A model generated the notes under the pieces. That model was not told the origin of the DNA. It did not search any database and was given only the letters and a program-made list of their open reading frames with translations. A stretch of DNA of 54,833 nt, taken from an uncultured virus (IMG/VR IMGVR_UViG_3300002839_000259). Taxonomy: Duplodnaviria; Heunggongvirae; Uroviricota; Caudoviricetes. Below are positions 812 to 45,329 of the stretch, piece by piece (positions within the stretch are counted from its first letter, which is position 1; every line of letters starts with the position of its first letter). The position numbers and the translations under genes were made by a program. The DNA lies in the IMG/VR virus record IMGVR_UViG_3300002839_000259, one strand, 5' to 3'.

Positions 812-1198
812 ATGGCAAATTATTACTGCGGTTGCGAACCGTTGAAGAATACTAAGATGAAAGATGCCAAAGCACATCTCATTCTGATTCAGCAATTAAA
901 AGAACACGAATTACTCAACTGGTTGTTCAACGAAGACAGTCTGAGCACCGAAGGTGAGGTTAACGACGTCGTTTTGATCGAACAGGAAATGATTGATATC
1001 TCACTTAAACTAAAAGACATCTTGATCTGGGTTGACATTTATGCAAGTAATATCGAAATCTGGCGTGACTATTATTTAAACGGCCAAACCCAAATGGTCG
1101 AAGCAACGCTGCCTAATATCAGTTTTCCGGATCCCTCATGGACACCGATTTTGGACGATGTTAAATGGGACGCATCACTTTTACAACAAGTATGTTAG
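812..1198 (+). CDS. hypothetical protein, paralog family A
   Basis: AGGAG RBS; MANYYCG...WVD.Y...WRDYYLNG shared with 5884, 12171, 44959. Confidence 0.8.
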   Translation: MANYYCGCEPLKNTKMKDAKAHLILIQQLKEHELLNWLFNEDSLSTEGEVNDVVLIEQEMIDISLKLKDILIWVDIYASNIEIWRDYYLNGQTQMVEATLPNISFPDPSWTPILDDVKWDASLLQQVC

Positions 1199-1215
1199 TG
1201 AAAAAGAGTGTCGCA

Positions 1216-1461
1216 ATGACATTTGGTAAATTAATTTATGAAAAAAGAATGGCTCAAGGCGTGTCGGCTAACCAGTTGACCAAAACGATGCAGATGCCTA
1301 TGGACTGTTTGATCCACATTGAAAATAGTGACGGTTATATCATCGACAAAGCGGATCTCGACGGTTTTATTGCACGTCTTAGCTTGGATGCAGCAAAAGT
1401 CAATACCGTCGTTAAATCGCTTAATTGCGACAAAATTTTGATATGTGGTATGATTGTATGA
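1216..1461 (+). CDS. XRE-like helix-turn-helix protein
   Basis: MTFGKLIYEKRMAQGVSANQL...IEN resembles the XRE HTH pattern. Confidence 0.5.
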   Translation: MTFGKLIYEKRMAQGVSANQLTKTMQMPMDCLIHIENSDGYIIDKADLDGFIARLSLDAAKVNTVVKSLNCDKILICGMIV

Positions 1462-1626
1462 GATCAGAAAATCTTTGCCAAATTGCGGATGCTTTAATCA
1501 AAAATTTGATATTAAACATATGCTCGAGCCAATCGAAATATCAATCGAACCGTTTGTATTAATCGTATAGCAAAAATCAAGCATGGCCACAACGGTTGTG
1601 CTCTTTTTTTGCTATACGAAATAAGT

Positions 1627-1644
1627 GCAATCATCGATTGCCGA
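1627..1644 (+). promoter_or_regulatory. hairpin-CGG motif, first of 18 copies (others at 7672, 9014, 9637, 10231, 17172, 18098, 23011, 31114, 36111, 39289, 40329, 40763, 41263, 49577, 50269, 50541, 53829); putative phage promoter or operator
   Basis: GCAATC-N3-GATTGC-CG(G/A), often followed about 9 nt later by TTGATAAG; intergenic, usually just after a terminator and before the first RBS of a unit. Confidence 0.7.
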
Positions 1645-1711
1645 TGGTGTTTGTAGTAAATAAAATAAAAATTAAATACAAGAAAATATGCATAAGAAAG
1701 TTGAAATAAAC

Positions 1712-2245
1712 ATGATTTTATCAGACAAAACCATTAATAAATATCTAGCAAGCGGAGAACTGGCAATTACACCATTTGAAGCAAAGAACGTGCAACCGGC
1801 CTCGATTGATATTCGCCTGGGTCGCAACTTCTTAAAAGTAGACGAAAATACAGCAACCTGTATGACCCTCACCGACGAAATAAAATACACACAAATAATC
1901 GCCGATGAGATAATTATTCCGTCACATTCGTTTTTACTGGCGACGACAATGGAATACATCAAATTATCGAACAATTTAACCGCTTTTGTTGAAGGTCGCA
2001 GCTCGATCGGGCGCATGGGCTTGTTTATCCAGAATGCTGGATGGGTGGATCCGGGCTTTGAAGGCGAAATCACATTGGAATTGTATAATGCCGGACGATT
2101 GCCCATCAAACTTGAAGCAGGTCGCCGCATCTGTCAATTAGTCTTCGCTCAAATGGACGAAACAGCCATAAATCCTTATTGTGGCAAATACCAGGGTCAA
2201 CGATCAGCCGTCGGTAGTCGTGTCTTTTTAGATAGCGACAAATAA
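1712..2245 (+). CDS. dcd: dCTP deaminase
   Basis: MILSD...QPASIDIRLG...EGRSSIGRMGL...AGWVDPGFEGEITLEL...ICQLVF...Y.GKYQGQ. Confidence 0.95.
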   Translation: MILSDKTINKYLASGELAITPFEAKNVQPASIDIRLGRNFLKVDENTATCMTLTDEIKYTQIIADEIIIPSHSFLLATTMEYIKLSNNLTAFVEGRSSIGRMGLFIQNAGWVDPGFEGEITLELYNAGRLPIKLEAGRRICQLVFAQMDETAINPYCGKYQGQRSAVGSRVFLDSDK

Positions 2246-2272
2246 TTAAATTAGAAAGTTGAGAAAAAATAA

Positions 2273-2491
2273 ATGAAATGTAATTTTGAAGCTAAAGCCT
2301 GTTATGAGGGCCTAGAGAATCAAGAAAAAGACTGTTGCAACCAGCAAAATTGTTGCGACGAATGTGGTTACGAAGATTGCAGCGAAGGTTGTAGCATTTT
2401 CGAAGAAACAGGGACCTGCGCCAGTTGTGAGTTTGCAATGACAGATGATGTTTTTAGAGAGAATTCTTTATTAAAAATAATTAAACAATAG
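2273..2491 (+). CDS. small Cys-rich protein
   Basis: RBS AGAAAGTTGAG; many Cys residues. Confidence 0.65.
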   Translation: MKCNFEAKACYEGLENQEKDCCNQQNCCDECGYEDCSEGCSIFEETGTCASCEFAMTDDVFRENSLLKIIKQ

Positions 2492-2509
2492 AAAGTGAGA
2501 AAAGCAATA

Positions 2510-3049
2510 ATGGAGAACCCAAACACCGGATTTATGAAACGCTTAAATGGGTTGTGCAAAGAGCGAAACATATCACAAGGCGACGTATCTCGTGGTATTG
2601 GATTGACGCGACAATCAATCAGCCTTTATGCCGCTGGTAAGCGATCGCCAGATATAATAACACTAAATAAATTATGTGATTTTTTCAGTGTGTCTGCTGA
2701 TTATCTGTTGGGACGAACCGACTTTGGTAAACCTGAAAACATAAAATTAGTTGAAACACTGGGATTAACCGATGCAGCTATAGCACAACTTACACACATT
2801 AAATCCATCAATTTCCAAAATATGGAAACCTTATGTGATGAAAGAACTCCGATAGAAGTTCTAAATCAAATGTTAGCATCCACCGAGCTGTTTACCATAC
2901 TCACAGGCATCAAAGCTATAAGCAATGGTCAACAATCCAACGCCGACAATGTATATGAAAATTTCGGATGGAGAATTGCAAAAAAAGACGTGATTCAAAT
3001 GGCCCTAAACGACGTCATGTCACGAATGATAGCAAAAATAGAAAGTTGA
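2510..3049 (+). CDS. XRE/Cro-CI family transcriptional regulator
   Basis: RLNGL...SQGDVSRGIGLTRQSISLY..GKRSP...LCDFFSVSADYLLGRT. Confidence 0.9.
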   Translation: MENPNTGFMKRLNGLCKERNISQGDVSRGIGLTRQSISLYAAGKRSPDIITLNKLCDFFSVSADYLLGRTDFGKPENIKLVETLGLTDAAIAQLTHIKSINFQNMETLCDERTPIEVLNQMLASTELFTILTGIKAISNGQQSNADNVYENFGWRIAKKDVIQMALNDVMSRMIAKIES

Positions 3050-3058
3050 GACACGCAT

Positions 3059-3475
3059 ATGACTAACATGACAGCCGAGCAAGCTTTGTACAACGCTGAA
3101 ATGAAAGCAAGGCAAAAAGCAACGCTTTTAGGGGCAACAAAAGACATTAAATCCGGTGATTTGTTCGCCGGTGAAGGTGGTGTTTTTACAGCGCCCGAAT
3201 TTTTTCAGGTCATTGAAAAAAAGGGTGAATTTGTAAAACTCCAAAAAATAAACCATCAAGAAACAAAGATTCCAACCCGATACGGTATTTGCATCACACC
3301 GCTAAAAAATGACTTTGCACCTGAATCAAAACCCATTCGTCGTAAACTTAAAAACCGTCGAATTGGCAACACATTGATCACAATGAATGATATTTATGTC
3401 GATGTGGTTGGTGAAGGTAGCACAACAGGTTTTAGCAAAATTAGCTGGGATTGCGACCAAATAGCGGAACGATAG
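3059..3475 (+). CDS. hypothetical protein
   Basis: ORF with AGAAAGTTGAG RBS. Confidence 0.7.
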   Translation: MTNMTAEQALYNAEMKARQKATLLGATKDIKSGDLFAGEGGVFTAPEFFQVIEKKGEFVKLQKINHQETKIPTRYGICITPLKNDFAPESKPIRRKLKNRRIGNTLITMNDIYVDVVGEGSTTGFSKISWDCDQIAER

Positions 3476-3504
3476 GTATTCAAAATAGAAAGTTGAGACA
3501 AAAA

Positions 3505-4068
3505 ATGACTGATTTAATAAAAATCTATCCGTTTAATCTGGCATTGCAAATTTTTGGACATACAGACGCCGTACAACGTGTTTATCTGCCAAATATTCCG
3601 GTCATTCTCGAAATATTAACCGATCGTGAGTATGAAATCATCAAACAACGATATGATGAGAAAAAAACATATCAGGAAATTGCTGACTTTCACAAGGTTA
3701 CCAGAACCCGCATTCGCCAAATTCATGACAATGCGTTACTGAAATTAAAAAAACCATTGCAAATGCAATTGATCACAGCCGTTTCTGAAAAAGAATGCAG
3801 CGATCGCATGAGACAAACAAATGAAGGCCTGCCAAACATAGTTAAACTACCAAACACAACAACTACTACTACAATTGATAGCTCAATTGAGCACCTAAAT
3901 TTATCGGCACGATGCTGCCGTAGTTTGCATCGTGCCGATAAAACAACGATTCGAGATCTAACTGGAATAAGCTATGCCGAATTAATTAAAATGCCAAGCA
4001 TAAGTCACATTACGGCTGAAGAAATCAGAACATCATTGGTGAAAGCAGGTTTTGCACTACATGATTAA
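3505..4068 (+). CDS. sigma70 region 4 fused to RNA polymerase alpha C-terminal domain
   Basis: LTDREYEIIKQRY...TYQEIADFHKVTRTRIRQIHDNALLKL (sigma r4) followed by SIEHLNLSARCCRSLHRADKTTIRDL...EL...AEEI (alphaCTD). Confidence 0.8.
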   Translation: MTDLIKIYPFNLALQIFGHTDAVQRVYLPNIPVILEILTDREYEIIKQRYDEKKTYQEIADFHKVTRTRIRQIHDNALLKLKKPLQMQLITAVSEKECSDRMRQTNEGLPNIVKLPNTTTTTTIDSSIEHLNLSARCCRSLHRADKTTIRDLTGISYAELIKMPSISHITAEEIRTSLVKAGFALHD

Positions 4069-9896: not shown

Positions 9897-10314
9897 TACA
9901 AGAAAGTGAGCACAATCATGAAACAACCAAAACAATTAATCTTAAACGAGGATCAGGTGTTTTTATTGACAGGCACAAGTGAACCTGAGTGGCGTGCATT
10001 CGAAAAATGGATCGACGATTGTGCTTTTTCAGGAAACATTGGCTGCACCTCATAGGAAATCAGCCAGGGTAATGCCGTCCACATGATTGATGCGACGTGC
10101 ACGTGAAGCCATCTGTAAAAATATTGTAAAAATCATTTCCAATATTCAGATTATTGATCAGCAGTAATATCAAAGAGAATGTGTAGCTTAAAAAGCTTTG
10201 CATTCTCTTTTTTTTTTATGCAAAAAACCAGCAATCGACGATTGCCGGGGCGTTATCTGATCATTAAATTATAAAAAATTAATAAAATATAAAACAAGAA
10301 AGTGAGATTAAATA

Positions 10315-10701
10315 ATGCAGTACATCAAGCACAACATGCAATCAATTCTCAATCCATTTGAAGACTATTTAGAGCTATTAACGTGCGAACTTGGTCCGGA
10401 CCTGGACACAACAAAGAACGTGATCGAAATTCATACCAAAGCTGACAACAAGGTGTTCGCTGTTTACCATGATGGCCAGACAAAGTTGATTTATATTTAT
10501 CCTACTGGTAATGAACCTGGATTAACACTATCGTGTGACCTCACGATGCCGTGCGACAACTACGACGATTATTTGACCGATGTACGAATGTTAAAGGACC
10601 ATGCTCCATACAGGTACGCTGAAATAATTGATAAACAGGTGATTATTAACAAAAAGCTGTTTGATCAACTGTCGAGCGAGTTGTTTGGTCGAGCTGATTA
10701 A
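10315..10701 (+). CDS. hypothetical protein
   Basis: ORF with RBS. Confidence 0.7.
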   Translation: MQYIKHNMQSILNPFEDYLELLTCELGPDLDTTKNVIEIHTKADNKVFAVYHDGQTKLIYIYPTGNEPGLTLSCDLTMPCDNYDDYLTDVRMLKDHAPYRYAEIIDKQVIINKKLFDQLSSELFGRAD

Positions 10702-10843
10702 GACTTTGATTTACATTAATTGCGCCGAAATGGTGAACGTCAATATGTTGATGCAACGATTACTTTTCCTGAACCTTTAGATTCAGGTTGGGAAGCGTAA
10801 ATCATTGTATTTATTAAAAAAAAAAAGAAAGCGAGAAAATAAT

Positions 10844-11233
10844 ATGAACTTTTTTGAACAAACACTGCGAAATATTTTTGAAAACGAACATGATTTTGAT
10901 CAAATTAGATTTATCGGTCGAACAGCATATGGAACAATCGGTGACACCATTCGGTTACGATTTGATATAATCGACACATCAACAAGCAAATATTTCAACG
11001 CCTTAAAAATAACAACGTTTAATAAAAATCAGGGTACAATTGATACGCTGATTCTTCGATTTGATGATATATGGGGTGTCAAAAAAATTGACCACCCGGC
11101 TTTTCCTGAAGGCATTGTTCCGTATATCTATGGCAACAATAAAAAACCCTATTGGTACATTTATGAGCCGAATGAAAAAGACTATAAACAATTGGCGGCA
11201 ACAATCAAACAATACACAAGTCTCTATCAGTAA
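10844..11233 (+). CDS. hypothetical protein
   Basis: ORF with RBS. Confidence 0.7.
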   Translation: MNFFEQTLRNIFENEHDFDQIRFIGRTAYGTIGDTIRLRFDIIDTSTSKYFNALKITTFNKNQGTIDTLILRFDDIWGVKKIDHPAFPEGIVPYIYGNNKKPYWYIYEPNEKDYKQLAATIKQYTSLYQ

Positions 11234-11261
11234 ATAATAACAATAAGAAAGCGAGACGACA

Positions 11262-11549
11262 ATGTCAAATATAACCGATTTTACGCCATATAAAAGTGGC
11301 GTTTGTGTTGAAATGGGACATCCAATTAATACAATAGAATGGCTTTTTCAAATCAATAAAAGCAACGAAAACAAGCTCGTCTTTTTTGCCTACGACGCCA
11401 ATCTATGGGCCTGCCCGGAGTTTAGTACATGGATCGATGGTCCATTCAAAGACTTACAGATCGAAAAAATCCTCGACCGCACGCATAATTTTGCAGGTGA
11501 AGTCTGGTTGGACGATGTCAAGATTAAAGAAAGTGAGAAAAGATTATGA
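11262..11549 (+). CDS. hypothetical protein
   Basis: ORF with RBS. Confidence 0.65.
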   Translation: MSNITDFTPYKSGVCVEMGHPINTIEWLFQINKSNENKLVFFAYDANLWACPEFSTWIDGPFKDLQIEKILDRTHNFAGEVWLDDVKIKESEKRL

Positions 11550-12142
11550 GACATGACGGCGAAGTGACCTATTATTCAATCGAACGATTGCTTCAAAAGC
11601 TTGAAACCAAAGAAAAAAAATATTATGATTGCGGCAATATGGAAATGTATCACGAAACACTACCACACGATGTTATCAACGAATTCACGGCCTGTGGTGA
11701 ATGCTGGCAAAAATATGGATATCATGGCACTCTCAGCTATAACACAGCCATCAGCATCATGGATAAATTGCGCGACGAAATTTTAAACGACGACACAAAA
11801 AATATAGAAATGACATCCCGACATTTTCCCGATGGACAAAAACCTTGGTCAAAAATACTTGATTTCAGGGTTGTTGAACACAAAATGACTCAAGAAACAA
11901 CATATTATGAGCGTGTCAGCGATATTGACCCAAAACTTCAAACCAAAGACGACATCGTGACCTGGTTGAGCACAACAATAAATGAACTCAATAGCAAATC
12001 AGATAATATCAATCGTCAGGTTCAAGCCATTTATGATGATCCAACATCCGATGTCGTCACTGCCGATTTATTAATCGACCGAGACAATATCGAAAAACAA
12101 AGCAGTATTTATGAGAGCATGCTGGATCGCATCGAAAAATAA
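11546..12142 (+). CDS. hypothetical protein
   Basis: ORF with RBS; C-terminus KLQTKDDIVTWL resembles N-terminus of 47034. Confidence 0.7.
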   Translation: MRHDGEVTYYSIERLLQKLETKEKKYYDCGNMEMYHETLPHDVINEFTACGECWQKYGYHGTLSYNTAISIMDKLRDEILNDDTKNIEMTSRHFPDGQKPWSKILDFRVVEHKMTQETTYYERVSDIDPKLQTKDDIVTWLSTTINELNSKSDNINRQVQAIYDDPTSDVVTADLLIDRDNIEKQSSIYESMLDRIEK

Positions 12143-12170
12143 TCTTCAATTCAGAAAGTGAGACAGTTTT

Positions 12171-12491
12171 ATGGCAAAATATTCATGCGGTTTCAACGCA
12201 ACCGAAAAAACAACACTAACGGACAAACAGATCAAAGAACAATTGCTGCAACTTTTGCAAAAACACGAATTACTTGATTGGCTATTGACCAAAGAATTAA
12301 AACCCTGCGGTGAATCTGGAGATATTGATGTCGAAATTGAGTTTCGAAGTATTTCAAACGATATAACAGATGTCTTATTTTGGGTTGATATTCGCAGCAG
12401 CGACGGCATGTTTCGCGAATACTATTTAAACGGAAAAATGCAATATGCCGGTGTTATTTTTACGGAACCATTAATCGACTCCTGGTCATAA
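12171..12491 (+). CDS. hypothetical protein, paralog family A
   Basis: MAKYSCGF...WVDI...REYYLNG. Confidence 0.8.
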   Translation: MAKYSCGFNATEKTTLTDKQIKEQLLQLLQKHELLDWLLTKELKPCGESGDIDVEIEFRSISNDITDVLFWVDIRSSDGMFREYYLNGKMQYAGVIFTEPLIDSWS

Positions 12492-12515
12492 TAATAAGAA
12501 AGTGAAAAAAAGAAT

Positions 12516-12869
12516 ATGACAATAAAAATATTTAATGGAATACCCGTCACCATTCCAAATAAAATTACCACTGAAACAACCGATTATTATATCAGTTATA
12601 ATAATCGGGACATCGGCATTTATGGTTGCGACACCACGGCCCTGGTCCTCACCAAACCAGACACACCCGAAAAATTTTTAATTTTAAACGGCAATCATGT
12701 CAACGCTTATGAAATTATCAAAGACAATAAGGAAACCGTCAAGGATTGCATTCAATATTTCAAAAACAATTATAATCAGCAATCAAAATACAGCGAAAAC
12801 TGGGACGAAATGTTTGTTTTTGGGGCAGATGGTCGATTAACGATCGCAAAAGACCCTAGTTGTCAATAA
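12516..12869 (+). CDS. hypothetical protein
   Basis: ORF with RBS. Confidence 0.7.
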   Translation: MTIKIFNGIPVTIPNKITTETTDYYISYNNRDIGIYGCDTTALVLTKPDTPEKFLILNGNHVNAYEIIKDNKETVKDCIQYFKNNYNQQSKYSENWDEMFVFGADGRLTIAKDPSCQ

Positions 12870-12889
12870 TTTTAGAAAGTGAGAAAAAA

Positions 12890-14379
12890 ATGATCAAACG
12901 AATTTTTATCGTCTTTTGTTTTGTTATGATGGCAACAACACCTGCATATGCTACCGAAAATTCGAAATGGGTGGTCGATGAACCACAGGTTTTATCACAG
13001 GAAACTGTCGATTATGTTACTAATTTAAATGAAAATGTCTTTCCCGGCTATAAAAACAAACCGCAATTGGCCATTGTCGTTCTTGCTGAATTACCCGACG
13101 GATATCCGATCAACGAACATAAAAAAGAATTATTTAATCAATATGGTGTAGGTATAGCAACTGAAAATTGTGGAATTTTGTTCGAGTTGGCCGTTGCTGA
13201 TCGAAAATATGGCCTTGAGATCGGAGATGGATACAACAGTTATCCATTATTGAAAAACGATTTGGAAAATGATTTTATCACACCAGATATGAAATCACTA
13301 TTGGTTGAAGAAGATTATGACATCATGATTAAACAAACCGTGATGAATCTGGAAACGATCCTGGCAAACGAAGAAGCTGGTATTTATGTACAAAAAGAAG
13401 CCAATGTCATTGCACAGCAAAAAATAGCGGAACAAACAGCAAATGACTTTTTTGCGTCTGTTGGCAGAATTATTCAGACGATTATAAAGATTATTGGTCT
13501 GGCAATTATAGCAGGCATCATCGGCGGTGTAATCAGAAAACAACTTTTCATAAACAACATAAAAAATCGACTCGGCCAGATGGCGACTCATTTATCATTA
13601 AGTGGTCAATCCGATAATCAAAAAGAGATTGTTAAATTATGTTGGCAACAAAAAAACAAATATAGCAGCAAAGACGCTCTGCTGCTATATTTGTTTTGCA
13701 TGATAAATATGTAGACATCATCAAACAACAACTTGAAGCCAACAACGCAACTAATAACTTCAATGAGTATGTCAATTATTTGAAAACAAAAAATACGCGT
13801 GAACAATTTACTAAGCTTAACTTATTGACCGTTCAAGAAATCATTGTGGCCGTTGATAAAGCGTGTGCGATAAAACAGACAAATAAAAAGACCAATACTG
13901 AAAAATACGAAAGTTATATTAATTCCTTGTCATTAACTGAAAACACTATTTCAAAACGTGATTTAATGAACAAAATACACGCAGAAACATATTATCACGA
14001 AAACGAAATATTATTGGATGATGAAGTGGCTACCAACATCACTCGTTTGATTGATCAAATGACATTTGATGCTGAATATAAAGAATTTTTATCAAAAAAC
14101 AGTGATAAAATAGATCATAACAGTTTTTCAAAAGATCAATTCCGCAAAGAAATCAAACAGTCAGACGATTATAAAACCTACGGCAACAGCGTTTTCAACA
14201 ATCCCACAATTTTGTTCATGTTGCTGATGATGCACACTGACAATATAATGGCCGAAAACAAAGCCTTAGAATCAAACAATAGTTCAAGCTATAGCAGCAG
14301 CAATAACACCTACGACAGTTTTGGTGGTGGTTTCGACGGTGGCTCATCATCCGGCGGCGGTTTTTCCGGCGGTTGGTAA
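12890..14379 (+). pseudogene. TPM-domain (YgcG-like) membrane protein, split by a frameshift near 13695
   Basis: Signal peptide; VVD...VLS..T...QLAIVV...LF...GVG...GIL...DRK..LEIG.G; TM helix; Ser/Gly tail FGGGFDGGSSSGGGFSGGW typical of the family lies in the second ORF. Confidence 0.75.
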
Positions 14380-14384
14380 TAATT

Positions 14385-14487
14385 GGTCGTGAAAGTCTTA
14401 TTAAACCTTGTCAGTCTTCGAAGCTCTCTGGTTTCGCTGGGAGCAAATGTGAATAAGAAACCCACTCCGTTAGGGGTGGGTGTATCA
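14385..14487 (+). mobile_element. possible orphan IS200/IS605 right-end / omegaRNA remnant
   Basis: AAGAAACCCACTCCGTTAGGGGTGGGTGTATCA hairpin of IS605 right-end style, no U-tract, no tnpB upstream. Confidence 0.4.
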
Positions 14488-14512
14488 GCAAAAAGAAAGT
14501 GAGAAAAAAAAC

Positions 14513-16237
14513 ATGAATATCATTATCACCGCCGGCGGCACTATTGAACCTATTGATGCCGTACGCAGCATCACCAACAAATCCTCAGGAAAACTGGGGC
14601 AAATGATTGCAATAGAATGCCTAAAACAATTTCCAAACTGCTTCATTTATTATCTCCATGGAAAAAATGCGGACGAGTTAAATTTGGATAACAACTTCAG
14701 ACACGAATGTGTTAAAATTGGTTCAGCCGATGATTTGTTAAAAGTTGTCACAAAATTATTAACCAGAAAACCCATTGATTTATTTGTTCACGCCATGGCT
14801 GTTGCTGATTATACAACTGAAAGTGTCATTGATACTGACAAATTAAAATCATTAATCAAAAATAATATTCACACACCTACAAACGAACTAATCGATCAAT
14901 TATTTGATGATGCCATCATTGATAATTCCAGTAAAATATCATCAAATTCAGACATCATGATCAAACTCAAGCCGACACCTAAAATTATCAAAAGCATCAA
15001 AGAATTGTCGCCGTATACGTTTCTCGTGGGATTCAAATTGGTAAATGATGTGAATACAGAAACCATGTTTAATGCAGGTTTTGATTTACTTCGCAAAAAC
15101 CGGTGCAACCTCGTTTTGGCCAATGATTTAGCAAAAATTAACAATTATCGTCACCCTGGAATGCTCATTTATCCCGAAAAAACAATGGATATGTTTAAAA
15201 ACAAACACTTGATTGCCAAAAATCTGGTGCAAGTCATCGCCAACCGCATTGACGCAGCCCATCCGAAGTCACACTATATCAAAACATGGACACCCATTGA
15301 CATTCAAGTCGAATTATTCAATAACACCGGTAGACGGCTTGACAAATGGGATCTCTTGCCCCACGTAATTAACCACAACAAAACAAACAAAATTGGCACG
15401 TATGGCAACATGTCAGTGCGCACCGGGAAAAAAGAATTTATTATTACCGGTCGAAACATTGACAAGACCAATATTAAAGCCAATGATTTAGTCAACGTCA
15501 ATTATGTCTGTTTTGAAGAACATGATAAAGATCTTGTCAAAACATATGCTACTGTCAATTATTCGCATATCAGCGAAAATATGAAACCATCAATTGATGC
15601 GGCTATTCACGCCAAAATATATGAACGCTTTGATATCAACGCGATTCTGCATGTTCACACCCCCGACAAACTGTTTCTCGGTGTGCCGATCGTTTATGGC
15701 AAACATCCATGCGGCTCAAAACCCGAGATGGACGCCATTGTTGAGTGCCTAAACCGCAATCCCGACGCCAACATCATCCAACTTGAGAAACACGGACTGA
15801 TGATTCTTGGTGCATCGCTGTTTGACTGTCAATTGCTGCTTGATGATCTGTTTGAATTCAATCCGTATATCGATTTATCTCAGAAAATGACTGATCAGGA
15901 ATGCCTGGATCATATCAAAGACGTCGATGCACAATTTGTGACCGACGATGAGTCGTATTTGTTAAAAATACAAGATATAACCATTGGTATGATTTGGGAA
16001 TCGATTTCTGATCAAAAGATCAGATTAATTGACTTTGGAATTTACGTTAAATTTGAATTTCAACGAAAAAATCTCGGTGTGATCAAAAAATATTTACATA
16101 TGAGACAAGGTTGCACCATGATGCTGCACACCAAAGATGAATGCGACATTACCGACTTATATCAAACAAAATACGGATTCTCCCATTTTTGTCAAAAAGA
16201 AAAAGACTATGCAATTCTAATTAAAAAAGATAATTGA
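14513..16237 (+). CDS. fusion of CoaB-like phosphopantothenate-cysteine ligase and class II aldolase/adducin domain, plus unassigned C-terminal domain
   Basis: IITAGGT.EPID.VR.ITN.SSGKLG, HAMAVADY, LVGFKL, LVLANDL (CoaB); GNMSVR, KPS.D..IH..IY, ILHVH, LEKHG (class II aldolase). Confidence 0.8.
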   Translation: MNIIITAGGTIEPIDAVRSITNKSSGKLGQMIAIECLKQFPNCFIYYLHGKNADELNLDNNFRHECVKIGSADDLLKVVTKLLTRKPIDLFVHAMAVADYTTESVIDTDKLKSLIKNNIHTPTNELIDQLFDDAIIDNSSKISSNSDIMIKLKPTPKIIKSIKELSPYTFLVGFKLVNDVNTETMFNAGFDLLRKNRCNLVLANDLAKINNYRHPGMLIYPEKTMDMFKNKHLIAKNLVQVIANRIDAAHPKSHYIKTWTPIDIQVELFNNTGRRLDKWDLLPHVINHNKTNKIGTYGNMSVRTGKKEFIITGRNIDKTNIKANDLVNVNYVCFEEHDKDLVKTYATVNYSHISENMKPSIDAAIHAKIYERFDINAILHVHTPDKLFLGVPIVYGKHPCGSKPEMDAIVECLNRNPDANIIQLEKHGLMILGASLFDCQLLLDDLFEFNPYIDLSQKMTDQECLDHIKDVDAQFVTDDESYLLKIQDITIGMIWESISDQKIRLIDFGIYVKFEFQRKNLGVIKKYLHMRQGCTMMLHTKDECDITDLYQTKYGFSHFCQKEKDYAILIKKDN

Positions 16238-18299: not shown

Positions 18300-21200
18300 A
18301 TGCAATTTCAAGATTTTACCAACCAATATGCGGTCAGCAAAACATTGAGTTTTGAGTTAATACCGCAAGGTCGAACATTAGAGCACGTTGAAGCAAAGGG
18401 TCTTTTGTCCGAAGATGAACACCGATCAGAAAGTTATAAAACGGTCAAAACCGTTATTGACCGATATCACAAACAATTTATTGAAGAAGCGCTCTCTGGT
18501 TTTGAGCTTGATGAGCTGGAAACATATCAAACGCTTTATAATATTGCCAATAAAACATCAGAAGATCAAAAATGTTTTATTGCTATACAAGACACCATGC
18601 GAAAATCAATCGTCAAACACATCAAACAACACCCTAAATTCAGCATCCTTGATAAAAAAGAACTCATCCGTGACGAATTATTCACATATTGTGAAAACGA
18701 CGCCGAAAAAGCGATGGTGTTGGAATTCTATAAATTCACAACCTATTTCAGCGGATTTAATGACAACCGAAAAAACATGTACAGCGATGAAGAAAAAAGC
18801 ACGGCTATTGCATATCGCATCGTCCATCAAAATTTGCCAAAATTTATTGACAATTTAAAAACTTTCAGTCTTATATCAAATGTATTATCCGAAAATATCA
18901 AAACGTTAAATACTGAACTGCAAAACGTTCTTGGTAACATGATCATCAATGATATCTTCGCTCTAAATTTTTTCAATCAAACACTGACACAAAAGGGGAT
19001 TGACAGATACAATACGCTGCTGGGTGGTTTTACCGATCAAAATAACCCAAAAAAGAAGATTAAAGGATTGAACGAATATATCAATCAATATAATCAAACA
19101 TTGCCAAAAACAGGTAAAATCGGAAAATTAAAGCCTCTATATAAGCAAATTCTCAGTGATCGCGAAAGTATTTCATTTTTGCCAGAAACACTGCAAACGG
19201 GACAAGACGTTTTAACTGCCCTTCGATGCTACTATGAGAGCAATCTAGCCGACGTGATCAACGAATACGGAAATGATGGTAAAACATTAAAAGAAGTATT
19301 CGAAAACTTATCCAACTATGACCTGTCTGGTGTATTTATCCGAAACGATGCTTCTATTGCTGACGTATCCCAAAAAATATTTGGCAACTGGAATATCATC
19401 CAACAAGCATTTGACCTTCGATATGATCAAACGTATACCGGCAAGAAATCTAAAAAACCTGAAAAATATGAAGACGAACGCAAAAAATATTTTAAAAATA
19501 TTCAAAGTTTTTCAATTGAGTCTATTAATGAGGCCCTGACCTATCTTAACGATAAAACTAAACATAAGCAAATCGAAAAATTCTTCAGCGGATTGGGCAT
19601 ACGTGAGAACAAAAATAATCTGATTACAATAATCAACAAGGCCTATGAAGACCTTGAAAAAGTGTTGGGAATACCTTATCCAACAGATAAAGAACTCTCA
19701 CAGGACACCCGAACTGTTGAAAAAATCAAAACATTTCTGGACAGTGTCAAAGCACTTCAATGGTTTACCAAACTCATTTTGGGAAAAGGTACTGAACCAA
19801 ACAAAGACTCACTGTTTTACGGTGACTTATTGCCACTATGGAATGAGATTGACAAAATTACGCCCCTTTATAACAGTATCCGAAATTACATGACAAAGAA
19901 ACCCTATTCCACAGAAAAGATTAAACTCAACTTTCAAAACGCAACGTTGCTGGCTGGCTGGGACGTCAATCAAGAACGAGCAAACACAAGTCTGATTTTC
20001 TTGAAGAACGGCCTGTACTATTTGGGAATTATGGATCAAGAATACAATAAAAGTTTCATCGATCTTCCTGTTCTACCGATGACAACAGCAGACGATGTTT
20101 ATCAGAAAATGGAATACAAACAATTGCCCGGTCCGGAAAAAATGCTACCCAAAGTGTTCTTTTCAAAAGCTCGAATTGATGAATTTGCACCATCAGAACG
20201 GGTTCTTGAAATATACAAAAACGGAACCTTTAAAAAAGGTGATGATTTCAAACTTGAAGATTGTCATGAACTGATTGAGTTTTATAAACGCGCAATCGCT
20301 CAACATCCCGCGTGGAATCAGTTTAATCACCAATTCTCAAAAACAAGCGCCTATCAAAATATCGGCGAATTTTATAATGATGTAAAACAACAAGGGTATA
20401 AAATCACTTATCGAGATGTGCCGGTAGAATACATGAATCAATTGATCAATGACGGACAACTATATTTGTTCCAAATTTATAACAAAGATTTTTCACCGCA
20501 CAGCAAAGGAACACCCAACATGCACACGTTATATTGGAAAATGATTTTTGATGAACAAAATTTGAATGACGTCGTTTATAAGCTTGATGGTGGCGCCGAA
20601 GTATTTTATCGCAAAGCCAGCCCTGGCATCAAAAAAACACCGACACACCCCAAGAATCAAGCAGTGGCTAACAAAAATCCACTCAACCCCAAAAAAGAAA
20701 GTATATTTGACTATGATTTGATTAAAAATAAACGATTTACGATGGATAAGTTTTTATTACATGTACCAATCAAAATGAATTTTAAGGCCAATCCCATGAC
20801 CAATCTCAATATGAGCGTGCGGTCTTATTTAAAAACACAGAGAAAAACCAATATCATTGGCATTCACCGTGGTGAACGCAATTTACTCTATGTCGCCGTC
20901 ATCAATGAAAAAGGTGAGATTCTGGAGCAACAGTCACTTAATACGATTATGAATAAAAACAACGACATCTCTCATACAACAGATTATCATGATCTTCTTG
21001 ATCGCAAGGAAAAAGAACGCGATACGGCCCGTAAAAACTGGCAGACGATCGAAAATATCAAAGAATTGAAGGAAGGATATCTCAGCCAGGTCATACATAA
21101 AATCACCCAGCTAATGGTTAAATATCAGGCAATCGTCGTGGTTGAAGATTTAGATATGGGATTTATGCAAGGCCGCCAGAAAGTTGAAAAGCAAGTTTAT

Positions 21201-22052
21201 CAAAAATTTGAAAAAATGCTAATCAGTAAGCTTCAGTATTTGGTAGACAAGAAAGCACCGATCAAGCAACCCGGCGGATTGCTTAAAGCCTTGCAATTGA
21301 CTAAAAATGAAACAGCCGGCCAGGGAAAAAACAGCTATGAAAAACAGAATGGTTTTCTGTTTTATGTGCCTGCATGGAATACCAGCAGTATCGATCCCAC
21401 TACAGGGTTTGTAAATTTGTTCAAAAGCAGTGACTTGCGATACGAAAGCATTAATAAGTCTAAAACATTTATCAATCTGATCGATAAAATGCAATATAGC
21501 ACAAGTGCTCAGCATTTTGAATTTAATATTGATTATGACAAGTTTACGGAAAAAGCGCAAGGGACGCGCACTGATTGGATGATTTGTACCCATGGCAAAC
21601 GCATCCGATCTTTCAGGAATGCGGAAACAAACAATCAATGGTGCACTGAAGAAATAGACCTCACACAAGCTTTTAGACAATTATTAGACGATAACGAAAT
21701 TGACTATCAATCGCAAACACTGAAAGAAGACATTCTACAAATGAACACCAGGGCTTTCTTTGTTGCGTTTCTGGATATCTTCAGGCTAATACTCCAATTA
21801 AGAAACAGAAAAGAAAACGGTGATTATCTAATCTCGCCCGTTAAAAATTCAACTGGTGAATTCTTCGATAGTCGTGATAAAAGAAATGGTCTGCCTGAAA
21901 ATGAAGACGCAAATGGTGCTTATAATATTGCCAGAAAAGGCGCCTGGATAATCGACGCGATCAAAGATGCCGATGATGACAAACTAAACAGAGTAAAAAT
22001 GACCATGTCTAATAAAGATTGGTTAACCTATGCCCAAGCCCATTTAATTTAA
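18300..22052 (+). CDS. cas12a: Cas12a (Cpf1), type V-A effector with RuvC-I catalytic Asp replaced by His (H856); predicted DNase-dead
   Basis: 1250 aa; FTNQY.VSKTL.FELIPQG, FTTYF.GF..NRKNMYS, KMLPKVFF, LYLFQIYNKDFS, KVEKQVYQKFEKMLI, DANGAYNIARKG; IIGIHRGERNLLY instead of IIGIDRGERNL. Confidence 0.96.
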   Translation: MQFQDFTNQYAVSKTLSFELIPQGRTLEHVEAKGLLSEDEHRSESYKTVKTVIDRYHKQFIEEALSGFELDELETYQTLYNIANKTSEDQKCFIAIQDTMRKSIVKHIKQHPKFSILDKKELIRDELFTYCENDAEKAMVLEFYKFTTYFSGFNDNRKNMYSDEEKSTAIAYRIVHQNLPKFIDNLKTFSLISNVLSENIKTLNTELQNVLGNMIINDIFALNFFNQTLTQKGIDRYNTLLGGFTDQNNPKKKIKGLNEYINQYNQTLPKTGKIGKLKPLYKQILSDRESISFLPETLQTGQDVLTALRCYYESNLADVINEYGNDGKTLKEVFENLSNYDLSGVFIRNDASIADVSQKIFGNWNIIQQAFDLRYDQTYTGKKSKKPEKYEDERKKYFKNIQSFSIESINEALTYLNDKTKHKQIEKFFSGLGIRENKNNLITIINKAYEDLEKVLGIPYPTDKELSQDTRTVEKIKTFLDSVKALQWFTKLILGKGTEPNKDSLFYGDLLPLWNEIDKITPLYNSIRNYMTKKPYSTEKIKLNFQNATLLAGWDVNQERANTSLIFLKNGLYYLGIMDQEYNKSFIDLPVLPMTTADDVYQKMEYKQLPGPEKMLPKVFFSKARIDEFAPSERVLEIYKNGTFKKGDDFKLEDCHELIEFYKRAIAQHPAWNQFNHQFSKTSAYQNIGEFYNDVKQQGYKITYRDVPVEYMNQLINDGQLYLFQIYNKDFSPHSKGTPNMHTLYWKMIFDEQNLNDVVYKLDGGAEVFYRKASPGIKKTPTHPKNQAVANKNPLNPKKESIFDYDLIKNKRFTMDKFLLHVPIKMNFKANPMTNLNMSVRSYLKTQRKTNIIGIHRGERNLLYVAVINEKGEILEQQSLNTIMNKNNDISHTTDYHDLLDRKEKERDTARKNWQTIENIKELKEGYLSQVIHKITQLMVKYQAIVVVEDLDMGFMQGRQKVEKQVYQKFEKMLISKLQYLVDKKAPIKQPGGLLKALQLTKNETAGQGKNSYEKQNGFLFYVPAWNTSSIDPTTGFVNLFKSSDLRYESINKSKTFINLIDKMQYSTSAQHFEFNIDYDKFTEKAQGTRTDWMICTHGKRIRSFRNAETNNQWCTEEIDLTQAFRQLLDDNEIDYQSQTLKEDILQMNTRAFFVAFLDIFRLILQLRNRKENGDYLISPVKNSTGEFFDSRDKRNGLPENEDANGAYNIARKGAWIIDAIKDADDDKLNRVKMTMSNKDWLTYAQAHLI

Positions 22053-22168
22053 CTTTTACCCAAAAAATGCAAACCAGCGTCTTAATATTTGATGGCGGTG
22101 GTTTGTATAAACAAAAAATCAGCAACATCAAATCCATTGAATGTTGCAATCATGATATCAAATTCAAA

Positions 22169-22197
22169 TTGCTATTAACTTGTAAAAATGTTAAAAT
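22169..22197 (+). promoter_or_regulatory. sigmaA-type promoter for the CRISPR array
   Basis: TTGCTA-N17-TAAAAT with TGn extension; predicted +1 at about 22204, inside repeat 1. Confidence 0.65.
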
Positions 22198-22202
22198 AAG
22201 GC

Positions 22203-22865
22203 TGTAAAAAATAATAACAAATGTCTACTGTCGTAGATGCTACCCATCACATCTACTTGAGGGGTGTAAATATAATAACAAATGTCTACTGTTGTAGATA
22301 CTCCGATATTTGCACATCTTTCAGTATGTAAAGATATTAATAAATGTCTACTATTGTAGATTACAACCAACTGTTCAAAATTACCTGAATATAAAGATAA
22401 TACTGTTTATCTACTATCGTAGATAAACAGTAACACATTTTGCAAAAATTCATGTGAAAATGCTAATAAATGTCTACTATTGTAGATTGGTCAAGTGTTG
22501 CGTAATGTGTTGCATGTAAAGATAATAACAAATGTCTACTGTTGTAGATCAAAAGGCCTTCATATAAATTCCCCAGATGTAAAGATAATAATAAATGTCT
22601 ACTGTTGTAGATGAAGATGAGTACAGAAAAGCTAAAAGATGTAAAGATAATAACAAATGTCTACTATTGTAGATCCCTTGACGCTCTTAGACTCAATTTC
22701 CTATCCAAAGGTGATAACAAATGTCTACTGTTGTAGATAAAAGAATGTTGGAATGAGATGAACTGATTCAAAGATATTAACAAATGTCTACTATTGTAGA
22801 TTCAACCTTATCGATCATATTAACAATATGTGTAAAGGTAATAACAAATGTCTACTGTTGTAGAT
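22203..22865 (+). CRISPR. type V-A array: 11 repeats of 36 nt, 10 spacers of 25-28 nt, possible trailing spacer after repeat 11
   Basis: Consensus ATGTAAAGATAATAACAAATGTCTACTRTTGTAGAT; repeats end at 22238, 22299, 22361, 22424, 22487, 22549, 22612, 22674, 22738, 22801, 22865. Confidence 0.97.
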
Positions 22866-22945
22866 GTAATATGCCAAGATAAGTTCTAAAAAAGTTCATA
22901 AATCCCATGGTAAAGCCATTTTAAAAATTAAAGAAGCATATAATC

Positions 22946-22984
22946 AAAAAGAGTGTACTGCCACATCGGCGGTACACTCTTTTT
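22946..22984 (+). terminator. intrinsic terminator closing the cas12a/array unit (member of a family also near 1581, 7604, 8952, 9575, 10172, 16470, 28960, 36050, 49510, 53755)
   Basis: AAAAAGAGTGTACTGCC-ACATC-GGCGGTACACTCTTTTT. Confidence 0.85.
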
Positions 22985-23073
22985 GATAGAGGTGTTATCA
23001 TAAACAACAAGCAATCGCGGATTGCCGGGATCACAATTAATAAGAAAATTCTAAAATAAAAAGGGGAATATAT

Positions 23074-23502
23074 ATGCGAAATTTTGAAATTCGTTTTATA
23101 AATTTAATGGATTATAAAACCGACGCTGAAATCAAAGCCAACGTAATCGAAATGATGGAGCACCATAGGGATATAAAGGCTATTTCGGGCAAAATAAGCG
23201 GTGTTTTGTTCATAAGCGACCACGAAGATGATTCTACTGGAAAAACGGCGCATACGTGTCTCTTGCATGGTAGAAACATGCTTGAGAGCGTCAATCACGA
23301 TTTTGATCGTTATCAGGATCAATTATTGAGGATCTTTGGTGTTGACGTGGCGATCATTCAGATTCATTCAAAAATTGGCCAGACACTCAGTATTGCCCAT
23401 CATAATAATCGATCAAGCATGATCCACCTGCGACCAGGCTTTGACGGTCCCCAGATTCTGGCTACGCCAGATGTAATATGTAACGTTTCAATTAAACTTT
23501 AA
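23074..23502 (+). CDS. hypothetical protein, close paralog of 51326..51745
   Basis: M.NFEIRFINL...TDAEI.ANV...GFDGPQI..TPDV.C. Confidence 0.8.
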   Translation: MRNFEIRFINLMDYKTDAEIKANVIEMMEHHRDIKAISGKISGVLFISDHEDDSTGKTAHTCLLHGRNMLESVNHDFDRYQDQLLRIFGVDVAIIQIHSKIGQTLSIAHHNNRSSMIHLRPGFDGPQILATPDVICNVSIKL

Positions 23503-23533
23503 AAATATAAATAAGAAAGTTGAGAAATTAATC

Positions 23534-24082
23534 ATGGACAAAAGTACCGTATGCCATCACTGGCATCCCATCTGGTGTGAGTGCGCCGATTGCGACACCT
23601 GTAACGATTTTAATCCGAATGCTACTGTCGTTAAAAACGAAATTCAAACCTGTATTATCAACATTAACACAGCTCTCGAAACTAAAGAAAAAATGGCCTT
23701 GGTGTCATCAGAAACATGGACCACCACAGCCATTAAAGCATTGACCGAAATTATTCAAGGTTTGTCCGATAAAAATACACAAGTGGCACCGGAAAATACT
23801 ATTCTTGATAATAAAAAAGCCTATATCCAGAAATATATCAATGACGAAATCGTATTTTATGAAAATAACGGCCGTGATGACGATGGTAATGAGTTAACCG
23901 CAGATGAGCTAATTAATGGTATTATAAATACGCGAAACACCATCGAAGCCATGTGCACATATGCAGTAGAGACAAAAGATATCAGTGCTAACGAGTCAAA
24001 TCTTTATCGCAATCCTTTTTATGCAAAATTTGAAGAACAAATTCTAATTTTTCATGAAAGAGAGAGACTCAAAAATGAATAA
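23534..24082 (+). CDS. hypothetical protein
   Basis: RBS; N-terminal Cys cluster; C-terminus similar to 7745. Confidence 0.7.
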   Translation: MDKSTVCHHWHPIWCECADCDTCNDFNPNATVVKNEIQTCIININTALETKEKMALVSSETWTTTAIKALTEIIQGLSDKNTQVAPENTILDNKKAYIQKYINDEIVFYENNGRDDDGNELTADELINGIINTRNTIEAMCTYAVETKDISANESNLYRNPFYAKFEEQILIFHERERLKNE

Positions 24083-25386: not shown

Positions 25387-25416
25387 AAAACTAAATACAG
25401 AAAGGTGTTGCTGATC

Positions 25417-25854
25417 ATGTACTCAGTATTCGACATAGCTAATTATATTTTGCAGCAATATGAAGCCAAAAATCTCAAAATTAATAATTTGAAACTGCAA
25501 AAAATCTTGTACTATATTCAAATTAATGCATTGCAAAAACACGATCAACCACTATTCCAAGAACCCATTGAAATGTGGTGGGGTGGCGGCAATGTGCCAA
25601 AATTATACTTCGAATTGCAGAAATACGTCTGTACACCCATTCATCCTGATGACAGTTGTTTCACTGATGCTAAACCAATCAATGATTTTGATAAAGAAAT
25701 TATTCAAGAAATTATTGACAAAACGCTTGATAAAAAAGATTTGGAATTAGTGACATCGATCCAAGCAACACAATTATATAAAGATTATTTTGTGACAGGT
25801 GTGCGACACCCGATCAACCATCGAGATTTAAAAAATGGCGAAATAAATATCTAA
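25417..25854 (+). CDS. Panacea (DUF4065/SocA-like) antitoxin-domain protein, orphan
   Basis: YSVFDIANYIL...INNLKLQKILYYIQ...PLF.E.IE.W..G..VP.LY. Confidence 0.85.
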   Translation: MYSVFDIANYILQQYEAKNLKINNLKLQKILYYIQINALQKHDQPLFQEPIEMWWGGGNVPKLYFELQKYVCTPIHPDDSCFTDAKPINDFDKEIIQEIIDKTLDKKDLELVTSIQATQLYKDYFVTGVRHPINHRDLKNGEINI

Positions 25855-29439: not shown

Positions 29440-30839
29440 ATCTTTCGCAAGGAGGCACGGCAATTCAATTGCCGCGAGGAATTGCGGTTATTATCACGTT
29501 TTTTTGTTAGTTTTTTGCAATAAATTAAGCAGATCTTCAATAAAATGTGATATAATTAATTATAGTGAAGAAAGGATGTGTTTAACAATGGAGCAGACAT
29601 TGACGGCAAAAATACAAATTTATCCAACGGATGCAATTTGTTTATCATTTATTGAAACCATGAATGCCTATCGCAACGCCTGTAATTATGTTGCTAGACA
29701 TGTTTTTGTCACGCGTTGTTTGAAACAACATGATATTCAGAAAGTGACGTATGCCAATTTGCGAGCAGACTACGGTCTTCGTTCGCAAATGGCAATTTCT
29801 GTTATTCGCACGGTAATTGGCAAATATAAAACCATTTTAGAGAATCAGCATGAATGGATTGAACCGTTGTTTAAAAACCCACAATTAGACCTGGTCTGGA
29901 ACCGAGATTATTCGCTGACGCGAAACGGTTTGTTCTCGGTTAATACGTTAACCGGTCGTGCTCAGGTGGCTTTTGCCACCAAAGGCATGGAACATTATTT
30001 TGATGGGTTCTGGAAATTTGGTACGGCCAAGCTTGTATACAAACATGCAAAATGGTTCTTACATATTCCCTGCACCCAAACACTACCCGAATGCGACACA
30101 ACCAACGTCAATAACGTGGTCGGCACCGATTTTGGTATGAATTTTCTGACCACCAGTTATGACAGCGATGGCAAAACAGCATTTGTTTCCGGTCGTTTTG
30201 TCAAAGCTAAACGGGCGCACTATCAGAAAGTCCGCAAGTCATTGCAACAACGCAAAACGCCGTCAGCCAGACGACGCTTAAAGAGAATCGGGCAACGAGA
30301 AAACCGTTGGATGCACGATGTTAATCATCAGGCATCAAAGGCACTCGTTACAACCCATGGACCGGACACATTGCATATTCTCGAAGACCTCACCGGGATT
30401 CGTACGGTGACAGAGAAAGTCAAACTGAAACAGCGTTATTATTCAGTCAGCTGGGCATTTTATGATCTGCGTAAGCTAATCGAATATAAAGCCATTCGCA
30501 TTGGGGCGATGACCATGGCCGTACAGCCAGCTTATACCTCGCAGACCTGTCCTAAATGTGGTCATACCGAAACATCCAATCGTAATAAAAAGAATCATAC
30601 ATTTATTTGCAAAACGTGTGGCTATCAGTCAAATGATGACCGTGTCGCTGCTATGAATCTGCACCGCAAGGGAATTGAGTACCTGAGTGCAGTGATCTGA
30701 GGTTATAAACCAAAAGATCCGGGGTGCTGTCAACCACCCCAGGATGTAACCCCAACGCAAGGTAGGAGGTTCTATTTTTAGAACCGCTCGCACTACTGGG
30801 GAGTTACAAGCTCGGTAATTCAATTACTGAGTCGTTGAC
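29440..30839 (+). mobile_element. IS200/IS605-family (IS1341-like, tnpB only) element; left boundary approximate
   Basis: Left hairpin CACGGCAATTCAATTGCCGCG; matching right hairpin CTCGGTAATTCAATTACTGAG ending GTTGAC; no tnpA. Confidence 0.8.
29588..30700 (+). CDS. tnpB: RNA-guided endonuclease TnpB, catalytic triad intact
   Basis: VVGTDFG (D), LEDLTGIR (E), YTSQTCPKCGH...CKTCG Zn finger, NDDRVAAMNL (D). Confidence 0.93.
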   Translation: MEQTLTAKIQIYPTDAICLSFIETMNAYRNACNYVARHVFVTRCLKQHDIQKVTYANLRADYGLRSQMAISVIRTVIGKYKTILENQHEWIEPLFKNPQLDLVWNRDYSLTRNGLFSVNTLTGRAQVAFATKGMEHYFDGFWKFGTAKLVYKHAKWFLHIPCTQTLPECDTTNVNNVVGTDFGMNFLTTSYDSDGKTAFVSGRFVKAKRAHYQKVRKSLQQRKTPSARRRLKRIGQRENRWMHDVNHQASKALVTTHGPDTLHILEDLTGIRTVTEKVKLKQRYYSVSWAFYDLRKLIEYKAIRIGAMTMAVQPAYTSQTCPKCGHTETSNRNKKNHTFICKTCGYQSNDDRVAAMNLHRKGIEYLSAVI

Positions 30840-45312: not shown

Positions 45313-45329
45313 AAAACAACCTTCAAGTG

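Follow-up and report, generated by a model that had tools for sequence, protein, structure and literature searches.

CRISPR systems (named after clusters of regularly interspaced short palindromic repeats) carried by phages and plasmids attack rival elements, and a few of them have been proposed to repress host genes. The type I restriction-modification (R-M) enzyme of a host is directly inhibited by products of another kind, the DNA-mimic proteins ArdA and Ocr of plasmids and phages. In Al-Shayeb et al. 2020, CRISPR loci of huge phages are described that lack Cas1, Cas2 and Cas4 and that include spacers targeting the sigma-70 and glycyl-tRNA synthetase genes of the host, and a Cas14 missing a catalytic residue is proposed, as 'dCas14', to act as a repressor (PMC7162821); the word 'restriction' is absent from the main text of that article. 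Cas12m protects by binding and not by cleavage (PMC11013384). The present analysis concerns a type V-A CRISPR array and its cas12a gene on a stretch of 54,833 nt, referred to below as the window, of the uncultured virus record IMGVR_UViG_3300002839_000259 of IMG/VR. The Cas12a of this locus carries His in place of the first catalytic Asp of RuvC, and one of its guides, spacer 6, matches the type I R-M gene hsdM. In a literature search for which subscription journals were largely outside the scope, neither a natural RuvC-mutant Cas12a nor a mobile-element spacer against hsdM was found described.

Spacer 6 and the hsdM gene

The array extends over 22203..22865 on the plus strand, which is the strand of cas12a, and begins 150 nt past the stop codon of the cas12a open reading frame (ORF). 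Its 11 repeats are each 36 nt long and recur with a period of 61-64 nt, the 10 spacers measure 25-28 nt, and behind the last repeat there is a further stretch at 22866-22892. All 11 repeats end in TCTACT-N4-GTAGAT, the handle of the Cas12a CRISPR RNA (crRNA), and the spacer lies 3' of the repeat. Spacer 6 occupies 22550..22576 on the plus strand and is single-copy within the window when up to 3 mismatches are allowed. Its reverse complement reads LGNLYEGLL in frame 0, and the crRNA is antisense to these codons of hsdM. Both the position and the translation had been given in an earlier annotation made from the letters without database searches (the sequence-only reading), and they were confirmed from the array layout and the frame-0 translation.

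[quoted passage not shown] The HsdM context LGNLYEGLL(E/Q)(K/R)NA was found at 78 of the 110 (38/46, 40/59 and 0/5, respectively), and one match (L077) is the window's own array, which is identical to window positions 21051-24076. The remaining 31, which lie outside this context, all have at least 4 mismatches. Besides the own array, ten matches have at most 2 mismatches, and all ten lie at one site of EcoKI-type hsdM, preceded by TTTC in nine cases and by TCTC in one, in agreement with both the target and the PAM that had been assigned. The codons predicted to come next, GAA-AAR (E-K), and the following GAGQYFTPR were both found in the targets.

In the best matches, L049 and L095, the mismatches are located only at positions 22 and 25 from the PAM, with 21 contiguous bases next to TTTC, and the mismatches of the best hsdM matches are all synonymous. 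Mature Cas12a guides are about 20-24 nt long, and therefore these two positions are at or beyond the effective guide. A check that is free of the frame, in which the whole 690-nt array was compared with whole genomes by BLAST, arrived at the same hsdM site with 25/27 identities and E-values of 1.7e-4 to 3.7e-4 per genome.

A chance likeness of a 27-mer to a conserved gene might be suspected, because the main search freed 9 positions and presupposed the frame, and because the E-value of such a short match is about 1e-4 per genome. Such a coincidence is extremely improbable, since 78 of the 110 pattern matches fall at one site of one gene family, the mismatches of the best matches are synonymous throughout, and TTTC stands before nine of the ten best. 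In addition, the target and the element occur in the same sequencing runs, and two neighbouring spacers match the same bacterial genus.

The matched gene is a genuine type I hsdM, as had been supposed. The target ORF contains the Pfam domains N6_Mtase (E 2.6e-72) and HsdM_N (E 1.6e-10), it matches the EcoKI M protein with E 1e-133 in an alignment running through FGDMYEGLLQKNANETKSGAGQYFTPR, and the NPPF catalytic motif is present as LTNPPFG. Its score of 60.9 bits for NCBIfam TIGR00497 is below the equivalog cut-off of 242.75 bits; therefore, the target is named EcoKI-family HsdM and not a member of TIGR00497. In L095, the C-terminus of HsdR is encoded upstream and the start of HsdS downstream of hsdM. 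The loci of Acetobacterium tundrae (L186) and of a congener (L187) contain a complete and contiguous hsdR-hsdM-hsdS operon among chromosomal genes, where hsdR has the EcoEI_R_C and ResIII domains and hsdS has Methylase_S with E 3.6e-43. The two operons share their position, with genes for a flavin mononucleotide (FMN) reductase, which lies directly beside them, Nramp and a chemotaxis receptor as neighbours and no integrase nearby.

Downstream of hsdS in A. tundrae, at 13731-17508 of L186, there are a gene for an OLD-type ATPase/TOPRIM protein and then a UvrD helicase gene. The pair is Gabija-like by reading, and the targeted A. tundrae operon is thus placed in a defence island because this pair adjoins it. 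Of the two best matches, L095 shares 90% identity with the A. tundrae locus, and L049 shares 99% with the hsd loci of four gut Gastranaerophilales genomes. Across the four Gastranaerophilales species genomes, the hsd locus (L008, L019, L028, L037, L049) is 98.6-99.1% identical, and in many metagenome-assembled genomes it is located about 1.3 kb from a contig end, which suggests recent horizontal spread together with an assembly-breaking repeat, possibly an invertible hsdS.

The Cas12a protein and its repeat array

The cas12a gene at 18300..22052 on the plus strand encodes a protein of 1250 aa (P0001) with five Cas12a Pfam domains (E 6e-34 to 9e-98) and the REC1, REC2, WED/PI, RuvC and Nuc architecture. 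The protein matches LbCas12a and FnCas12a in the PDB with E=0 and Cas12a in PADLOC with 1608 bits. The top PDB match, ReChb, was set aside as a natural relative since its source is labelled as a synthetic construct; we take it to be an ancestral reconstruction. No Cas1, Cas2 or Cas4 was found with PADLOC among 110 ORFs of the 54.8-kb window, nor with Pfam among the 75 ORFs scanned.

Alignment to homologues showed that the CAC codon at 20865..20867 (plus strand) places His856 at the catalytic Asp of RuvC motif I (IGIHRGERN), where LbCas12a has IGIDRGERN; the sequence-only reading had called this Cas12a dead. Motifs II (VVVEDLD) and III (DANGAYNIA) are intact, and the RuvC triad of P0001 is His-Glu-Asp. 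The same His is found in P0002, an 81%-identical protein encoded on another contig, of 7.3 kb, which indicates that it is a fixed trait and not an error, and Asp is found in 118 of the 120 closest homologues. Among representatives of 150 clusters at 50% identity, a rough tally based on regular expressions gave Asp in 141, and the others had Asn (3), Lys (2), Thr (1), His (1) or an unresolved residue (2). The representatives with Asn, Lys, Thr or His are P0158, P0183, P0186, P0228, P0243, P0246 and P0260; P0158 also has Ala at the Asp of motif III, P0186 keeps that Asp, and motif III was missed by the pattern in the five others. Natural RuvC-mutant Cas12a thus seems to have arisen several times.

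P0001 and P0002 also share changes at columns that are at least 97% conserved in 111 relatives, and these number 16/163 in the RuvC/Nuc third versus 5/187 (Fisher p 0.006). One further shared change is Lys558Gln (window 19971-19973), where Gln is present in both proteins and Lys in 110 of the 111 relatives; this Lys is presumably the PAM-contacting one (AsCas12a K548). Alongside this change, it was observed that the PAM of the perfect target of spacer 7 is ATTA and not TTTV.

The Asp-to-Ala mutants at RuvC-I (D832A, D908A and D917A) abolish DNA cleavage. Because His replaces the first catalytic Asp, binding without cutting is the most likely behaviour of this protein. Should the His variant have kept the ability to cut or nick DNA, then spacer 6 would damage hsdM-bearing DNA, either the host chromosome in a lytic takeover or a rival element, and the locus would be engaged in ordinary nuclease warfare. 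The Glu of RuvC II, the Asp of RuvC III and the rest of the nuclease lobe, where P0001 and P0002 are 72-84% identical, are kept as this would require, and the orientation of spacer 6, which is poor for a roadblock, is irrelevant to cleavage. Two viral contigs with a lone Cas12a and an array also have the Asp intact. We nevertheless regard residual nuclease activity as rather unlikely, since Asp is so widely kept among the homologues and the cluster representatives, the His is fixed across about 19% protein divergence, and the shared changes at conserved positions are in excess in the nuclease lobe.

The two viral contigs are from IMG/VR, with cas12a at 28-3714 and an array at about 4059-4650 in L001 and with cas12a at 10001-13462 and an array at about 13807-14330 in L002. 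The two proteins are 44-45% identical to P0001, and within about 350 nt past each gene there come 8-9 repeat-like handles.

The repeats of the window are all different, with no identical pair among the 11 copies. The variation is mostly confined to the 5' half and the 4-nt loop, and the stem and the final bases, which form the 3' handle, are preserved in 11/11. In five chromosomal V-A arrays taken for comparison from Gastranaerophilales and Acetobacterium genomes, the identical repeat copies, as judged by reading the arrays, numbered 13/13, 8/8, 14/15, 12/14 and 5/5. The degenerate repeats of the window, compared with these near-uniform arrays, fit a fixed set of guides that is no longer renewed.

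A promoter-like site, TTGCTA-17-TAAAAT with TG, is located at 22169..22197 (plus strand), just 5' of repeat 1; it is a weak candidate, the regional count of such sites being not above that of shuffled sequences. A strong hairpin followed by a T run at 22943..22987 (plus strand; −32.3 kcal/mol, z −9.25) is the likely terminator of the cas12a-array unit. Within the array, repeat 4 is aberrant, and a perfect hairpin of 14 bp arises at 22401-22432 from this repeat and the opening bases of spacer 4; the folding of the 72-nt stretch of repeat 4 and spacer 4 amounts to −20.7 kcal/mol (z −6.35). This hairpin would hide the seed of spacer 4, which may thus be inactive as a guide or may serve as an attenuator inside the array.

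These features raise the question of whether the array is a decaying relic, in which the guides are inert and the hsdM match records a past acquisition. The absence of any identical repeat pair, the locking of spacer 4 in a hairpin with its own repeat, the limit of 25/27 for the best hsdM matches and the lack of adaptation genes found in the window are all in line with decay. Against decay, the 3' handle is kept in every repeat while the 5' parts drift, spacer 7 has a perfect 26/26 target, the Cas12a is full-length and 81% identical to its relative P0002, and the unit is framed by a promoter-like site and a strong terminator. We therefore consider decay very unlikely.

Other spacers, the element and its likely host

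Spacer 7, at 22613..22638 on the plus strand, matches the Acetobacterium genome G409 at 26/26 positions (27 with the next base) with E 1.3e-6 and the PAM ATTA. The match is on the coding strand of an ORF of 100 aa that heads the transfer module of a Tn916-like element, and it is followed by genes for a 129-aa protein, FtsK/SpoIIIE, Rep_trans and a Tn916-type integrase. The adjoining cargo of this element consists of a type I HsdM-S fusion, HsdR and an Abi_C protein; spacer 7 is thus directed at a mobile element that is small and integrative and that carries defence genes.

Spacer 5, at 22488..22513 on the plus strand, matches 23/26 positions of a contig in another Acetobacterium-genus genome (G417:C11), with positions 5-26 exact, mismatches at 1, 2 and 4, and a TTTA PAM. 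The site is intergenic, and the contig is mobile-element-like and related to the window. Because of the mismatches in the seed, the site is regarded as a diverged homologue of the true target. Across only three targets, the PAMs are TTTC (nine of the ten best hsdM matches), TTTA (spacer 5) and ATTA (spacer 7).

At a limit of 6 mismatches, the other spacers had no match in the hsd loci or the window; in phage and plasmid records they gave no E-value below 0.6, and in five genomes with hsdM their matches did not exceed the chance level. A search of 401 genomes scored the best 2 candidates per genome and is accordingly weak. In viral contigs, 16-mer seeds of spacers 1, 2 and 8 occurred at 12, 24 and 3 loci, none of which extends and none of which has a TTTV PAM (0/39), and the 22-mer core of spacer 5 and a 20-mer of spacer 7 had 0 matches. 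The sequence-only reading had suggested that the nine spacers besides spacer 6 could point to further defence genes. This was only weakly borne out in that the element targeted by spacer 7 carries type I R-M and Abi genes, but the match itself is in a small ORF of the transfer module, that of spacer 5 is intergenic, and seven spacers are without a target.

The two targets raise the possibility that the true target of spacer 6 is an hsdM gene on a rival plasmid or integrative element, the chromosomal match being a by-product of family conservation. The Tn916-like element with its type I R-M and Abi genes, the mobile-element-like contig related to the window, and the 98.6-99.1% identity of the hsd locus in four Gastranaerophilales species genomes, which suggests horizontal mobility, are what such a target would lead one to expect. 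On the other hand, the two Acetobacterium operons are at a shared chromosomal position with no integrase nearby, and hsdM matches were absent from 72,556 plasmid and 50,697 phage records (E <= 10) and from the 5 viral-contig pattern matches. A rival's cargo as the true target is consequently judged to be rather unlikely.

The matches also bear on the host. When the array was compared by BLAST with 27 genomes of the A. tundrae genus, three different spacers (5, 6 and 7) matched in four genomes, with spacer 6 matching at 25/27 in G005 and G403, where the PAMs are TCTC and TTTC. In the 75 other genomes of the order (53 genomes of the family and 102 of the order were searched), spacers 5, 6 and 7 had no match with E <= 1e-3. 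DNA similarity to 20 kb of the window was found in 6 of the 27 genomes. The contig that is matched by spacer 5 encodes homologues of five window proteins and a stretch 34% identical to a sixth (w37431), and the YoeB/ParE-type toxin-antitoxin pair has 94-96% protein identity between the window and this contig. In G412, another genome of this genus, the chromosome encodes a Cas12a that is 52-58% identical and keeps the Asp, and the repeat of G412 has the 5' ATCCAAAGAT in common with repeats 9 and 10 of the window. From the spacer matches, the shared DNA and the toxin-antitoxin similarity, the host of the element is likely to be Acetobacterium or a close relative, and the guess of a host among the Firmicutes or Clostridia fits this assignment.

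The element was found in four metagenome runs (X1-X4), all of which are labelled peat metagenome. The 3026-nt hsd locus L095 was present without a single difference in X1, on a 9920-nt contig (depth 39), and in X2, on a 9598-nt contig (depth 94), and X3 and X4 contain a variant hsd allele with changes at L095 positions 1515 and 1524, which are within the protospacer. On the favoured interpretation, an Acetobacterium-like bacterium with the targeted R-M system inhabits the peat samples that contain the element.

Gastranaerophilales had been suggested first as the host by their 25/27 hsdM matches and L049, and this candidate was dropped. Their Cas12a is only 47% identical and their repeats differ in the 5' half; 50 of their spacers had no convincing match in the window, the best having 5 mismatches in 24; none of 301 genomes has DNA in common with 20 kb of the window; and the element occurs in peat runs and not in gut runs.

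The window corresponds to bases 173,186-228,018, the last 54.8 kb, of a contig of 228,044 bp, which is above the 200-kb size of huge phages. Its likely genes are nearly all on one strand and include genes of nucleotide metabolism and genes for LPD11 and DpnD/PcfM-like proteins. Phage hallmark genes (capsid, terminase, portal and tail) were absent from the 60 window ORFs scanned with PHROGs, the contig had no match in the viral-contig collection searched, and megablast of 24 kb of the window against public phage records gave no match. The element is described here as mobile-element-like, that is, as a large mobile DNA element, phage or plasmid.

Several other genes of the window were observed. 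A TnpB/IS605 OrfB-type gene of 398 aa (Pfam OrfB_IS605 and Cas12f1-like TNB) lies at 29504-30700, 6.6 kb 3' of the array, and a fragment of it at 58-77% protein identity is found in the Acetobacterium genome G408. At 3451-4068, a protein of 205 aa combines sigma-70 region 4 with the C-terminal domain of RNA polymerase alpha, an unusual fusion that could redirect host transcription, and in a 585-aa fusion protein at 14480-16237 a DFP (CoaB-like) domain is joined to one of the class II aldolase/adducin type. The genes at 25405-25854, 45191-45571, 49667-50041 and 53244-53752, which encode two SocA/Panacea-domain proteins, an RnlB-like antitoxin that has no visible toxin, and the YoeB/ParE-type pair, may serve counter-defence or addiction.

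Proposed mechanism and comparison with known systems

HsdM and HsdS are needed for both restriction and methylation, and HsdR is inactive without them. In the proposed mechanism, the Cas12a with His at RuvC-I retains the parts that handle the guide and read the PAM, and also the second and third RuvC carboxylates, and would bind its target without cutting it. When bound at hsdM, it would reduce the amount of HsdM and of the downstream HsdS produced from the hsdR-hsdM-hsdS operon. Since HsdR is inactive without HsdM and HsdS, a block at hsdM would remove restriction without self-restriction, and the element would be spared without any cut in the host chromosome. The fixed array of 10 spacers without adaptation genes would also be aimed, by spacers 5 and 7, at rival mobile elements, and because the same array has both kinds of target, the system looks like a programmable binder for counter-defence and competition.

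Several points weigh against this mechanism. The loss of DNase activity is presumed from one substitution, and His can bind metals. No exact match to the 21-mer at the PAM-proximal end of spacer 6 was found in one genome each of 185,579 species, and no hsdM match of 27/27 was found, the best being 25/27. Seven of the ten spacers have no target in the hsd loci, the window, the records of phages and plasmids, the five genomes that bear hsdM or the viral contigs. Because spacers 5 and 7 aim at mobile elements, hsdM could itself be the cargo of a rival element. Since both sequences may derive from X1 and X2, the co-occurrence in peat amounts to one or two samples with no independent replication. 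Restriction enzyme that is already there at entry cannot be removed by a repressor made afterwards, and silenced methylation would leave the progeny DNA unmodified. Moreover, crRNA 6 pairs with the non-template (coding) strand because it is antisense to hsdM, and for engineered ddCpf1 stronger repression inside genes is reported with template-strand crRNAs (PMC5460296).

With these points taken into account, the interpretation that spacer 6 is a genuine guide directed at a conserved site of EcoKI-family hsdM, and that the element uses a binding-only Cas12a for counter-defence and for competition between elements, is held tentatively, at slightly less than an even chance. The broader proposal, in which mobile elements have repeatedly turned Cas12a into a nuclease-dead programmable binder, used here as an anti-defence agent against the hsdM operon of the host and against rival defence-carrying elements, is possible but doubtful. 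If true, it would show that CRISPR can be converted by mobile elements into a means of counter-defence against a different immune system, and the protein would be a dCas12a of natural origin, whose PAM pocket may be altered and with which the engineered ones could be compared.

The locus resembles canonical type V-A systems (LbCas12a, FnCas12a and AsCas12a) in the full domain set of its effector and in its 36-nt repeats with the UCUACU-N4-GUAGAU handle; the sequences found 5' of its three known targets (TTTC, TTTA and ATTA) are also T-rich. It differs from them in the His for the RuvC-I Asp and the Gln558 for the conserved Lys, in the absence of cas4-cas1-cas2 from the window, in the degeneracy of the 5' halves of the repeats and in its location on a mobile-element-like contig of 228 kb. 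With ArdA and Ocr, it has in common that a mobile element would specifically neutralise type I restriction, whereas the means proposed here is RNA-guided repression of a gene, which is powerless against enzyme already made.

Cas12m and dCas12a/ddCpf1 used for CRISPR interference (CRISPRi) act as roadblocks through RNA-guided binding (PMC11013384, PMC5460296), which is the mode presumed for the present Cas12a. As in dCas12a/ddCpf1 CRISPRi, the effector retains crRNA processing from a multi-spacer array. Cas12m is unlike it in being a small and distinct subtype, and ddCpf1 in being man-made; judged against the ddCpf1 data, spacer 6 also has the orientation that works poorly inside genes, and spacer 7 has the orientation favourable for repression of this type.

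In overall arrangement, the locus is also like the huge-phage CRISPR systems with 'dCas14'. Both consist of a compact array borne by an element without an acquisition module, a spacer is directed against a host gene, one catalytic residue of the effector is lost and repression is proposed in place of cleavage. The present element may be a phage or a plasmid; its effector is a Cas12a of type V-A, and the proposed target is the defence gene hsdM instead of a gene of transcription or translation.

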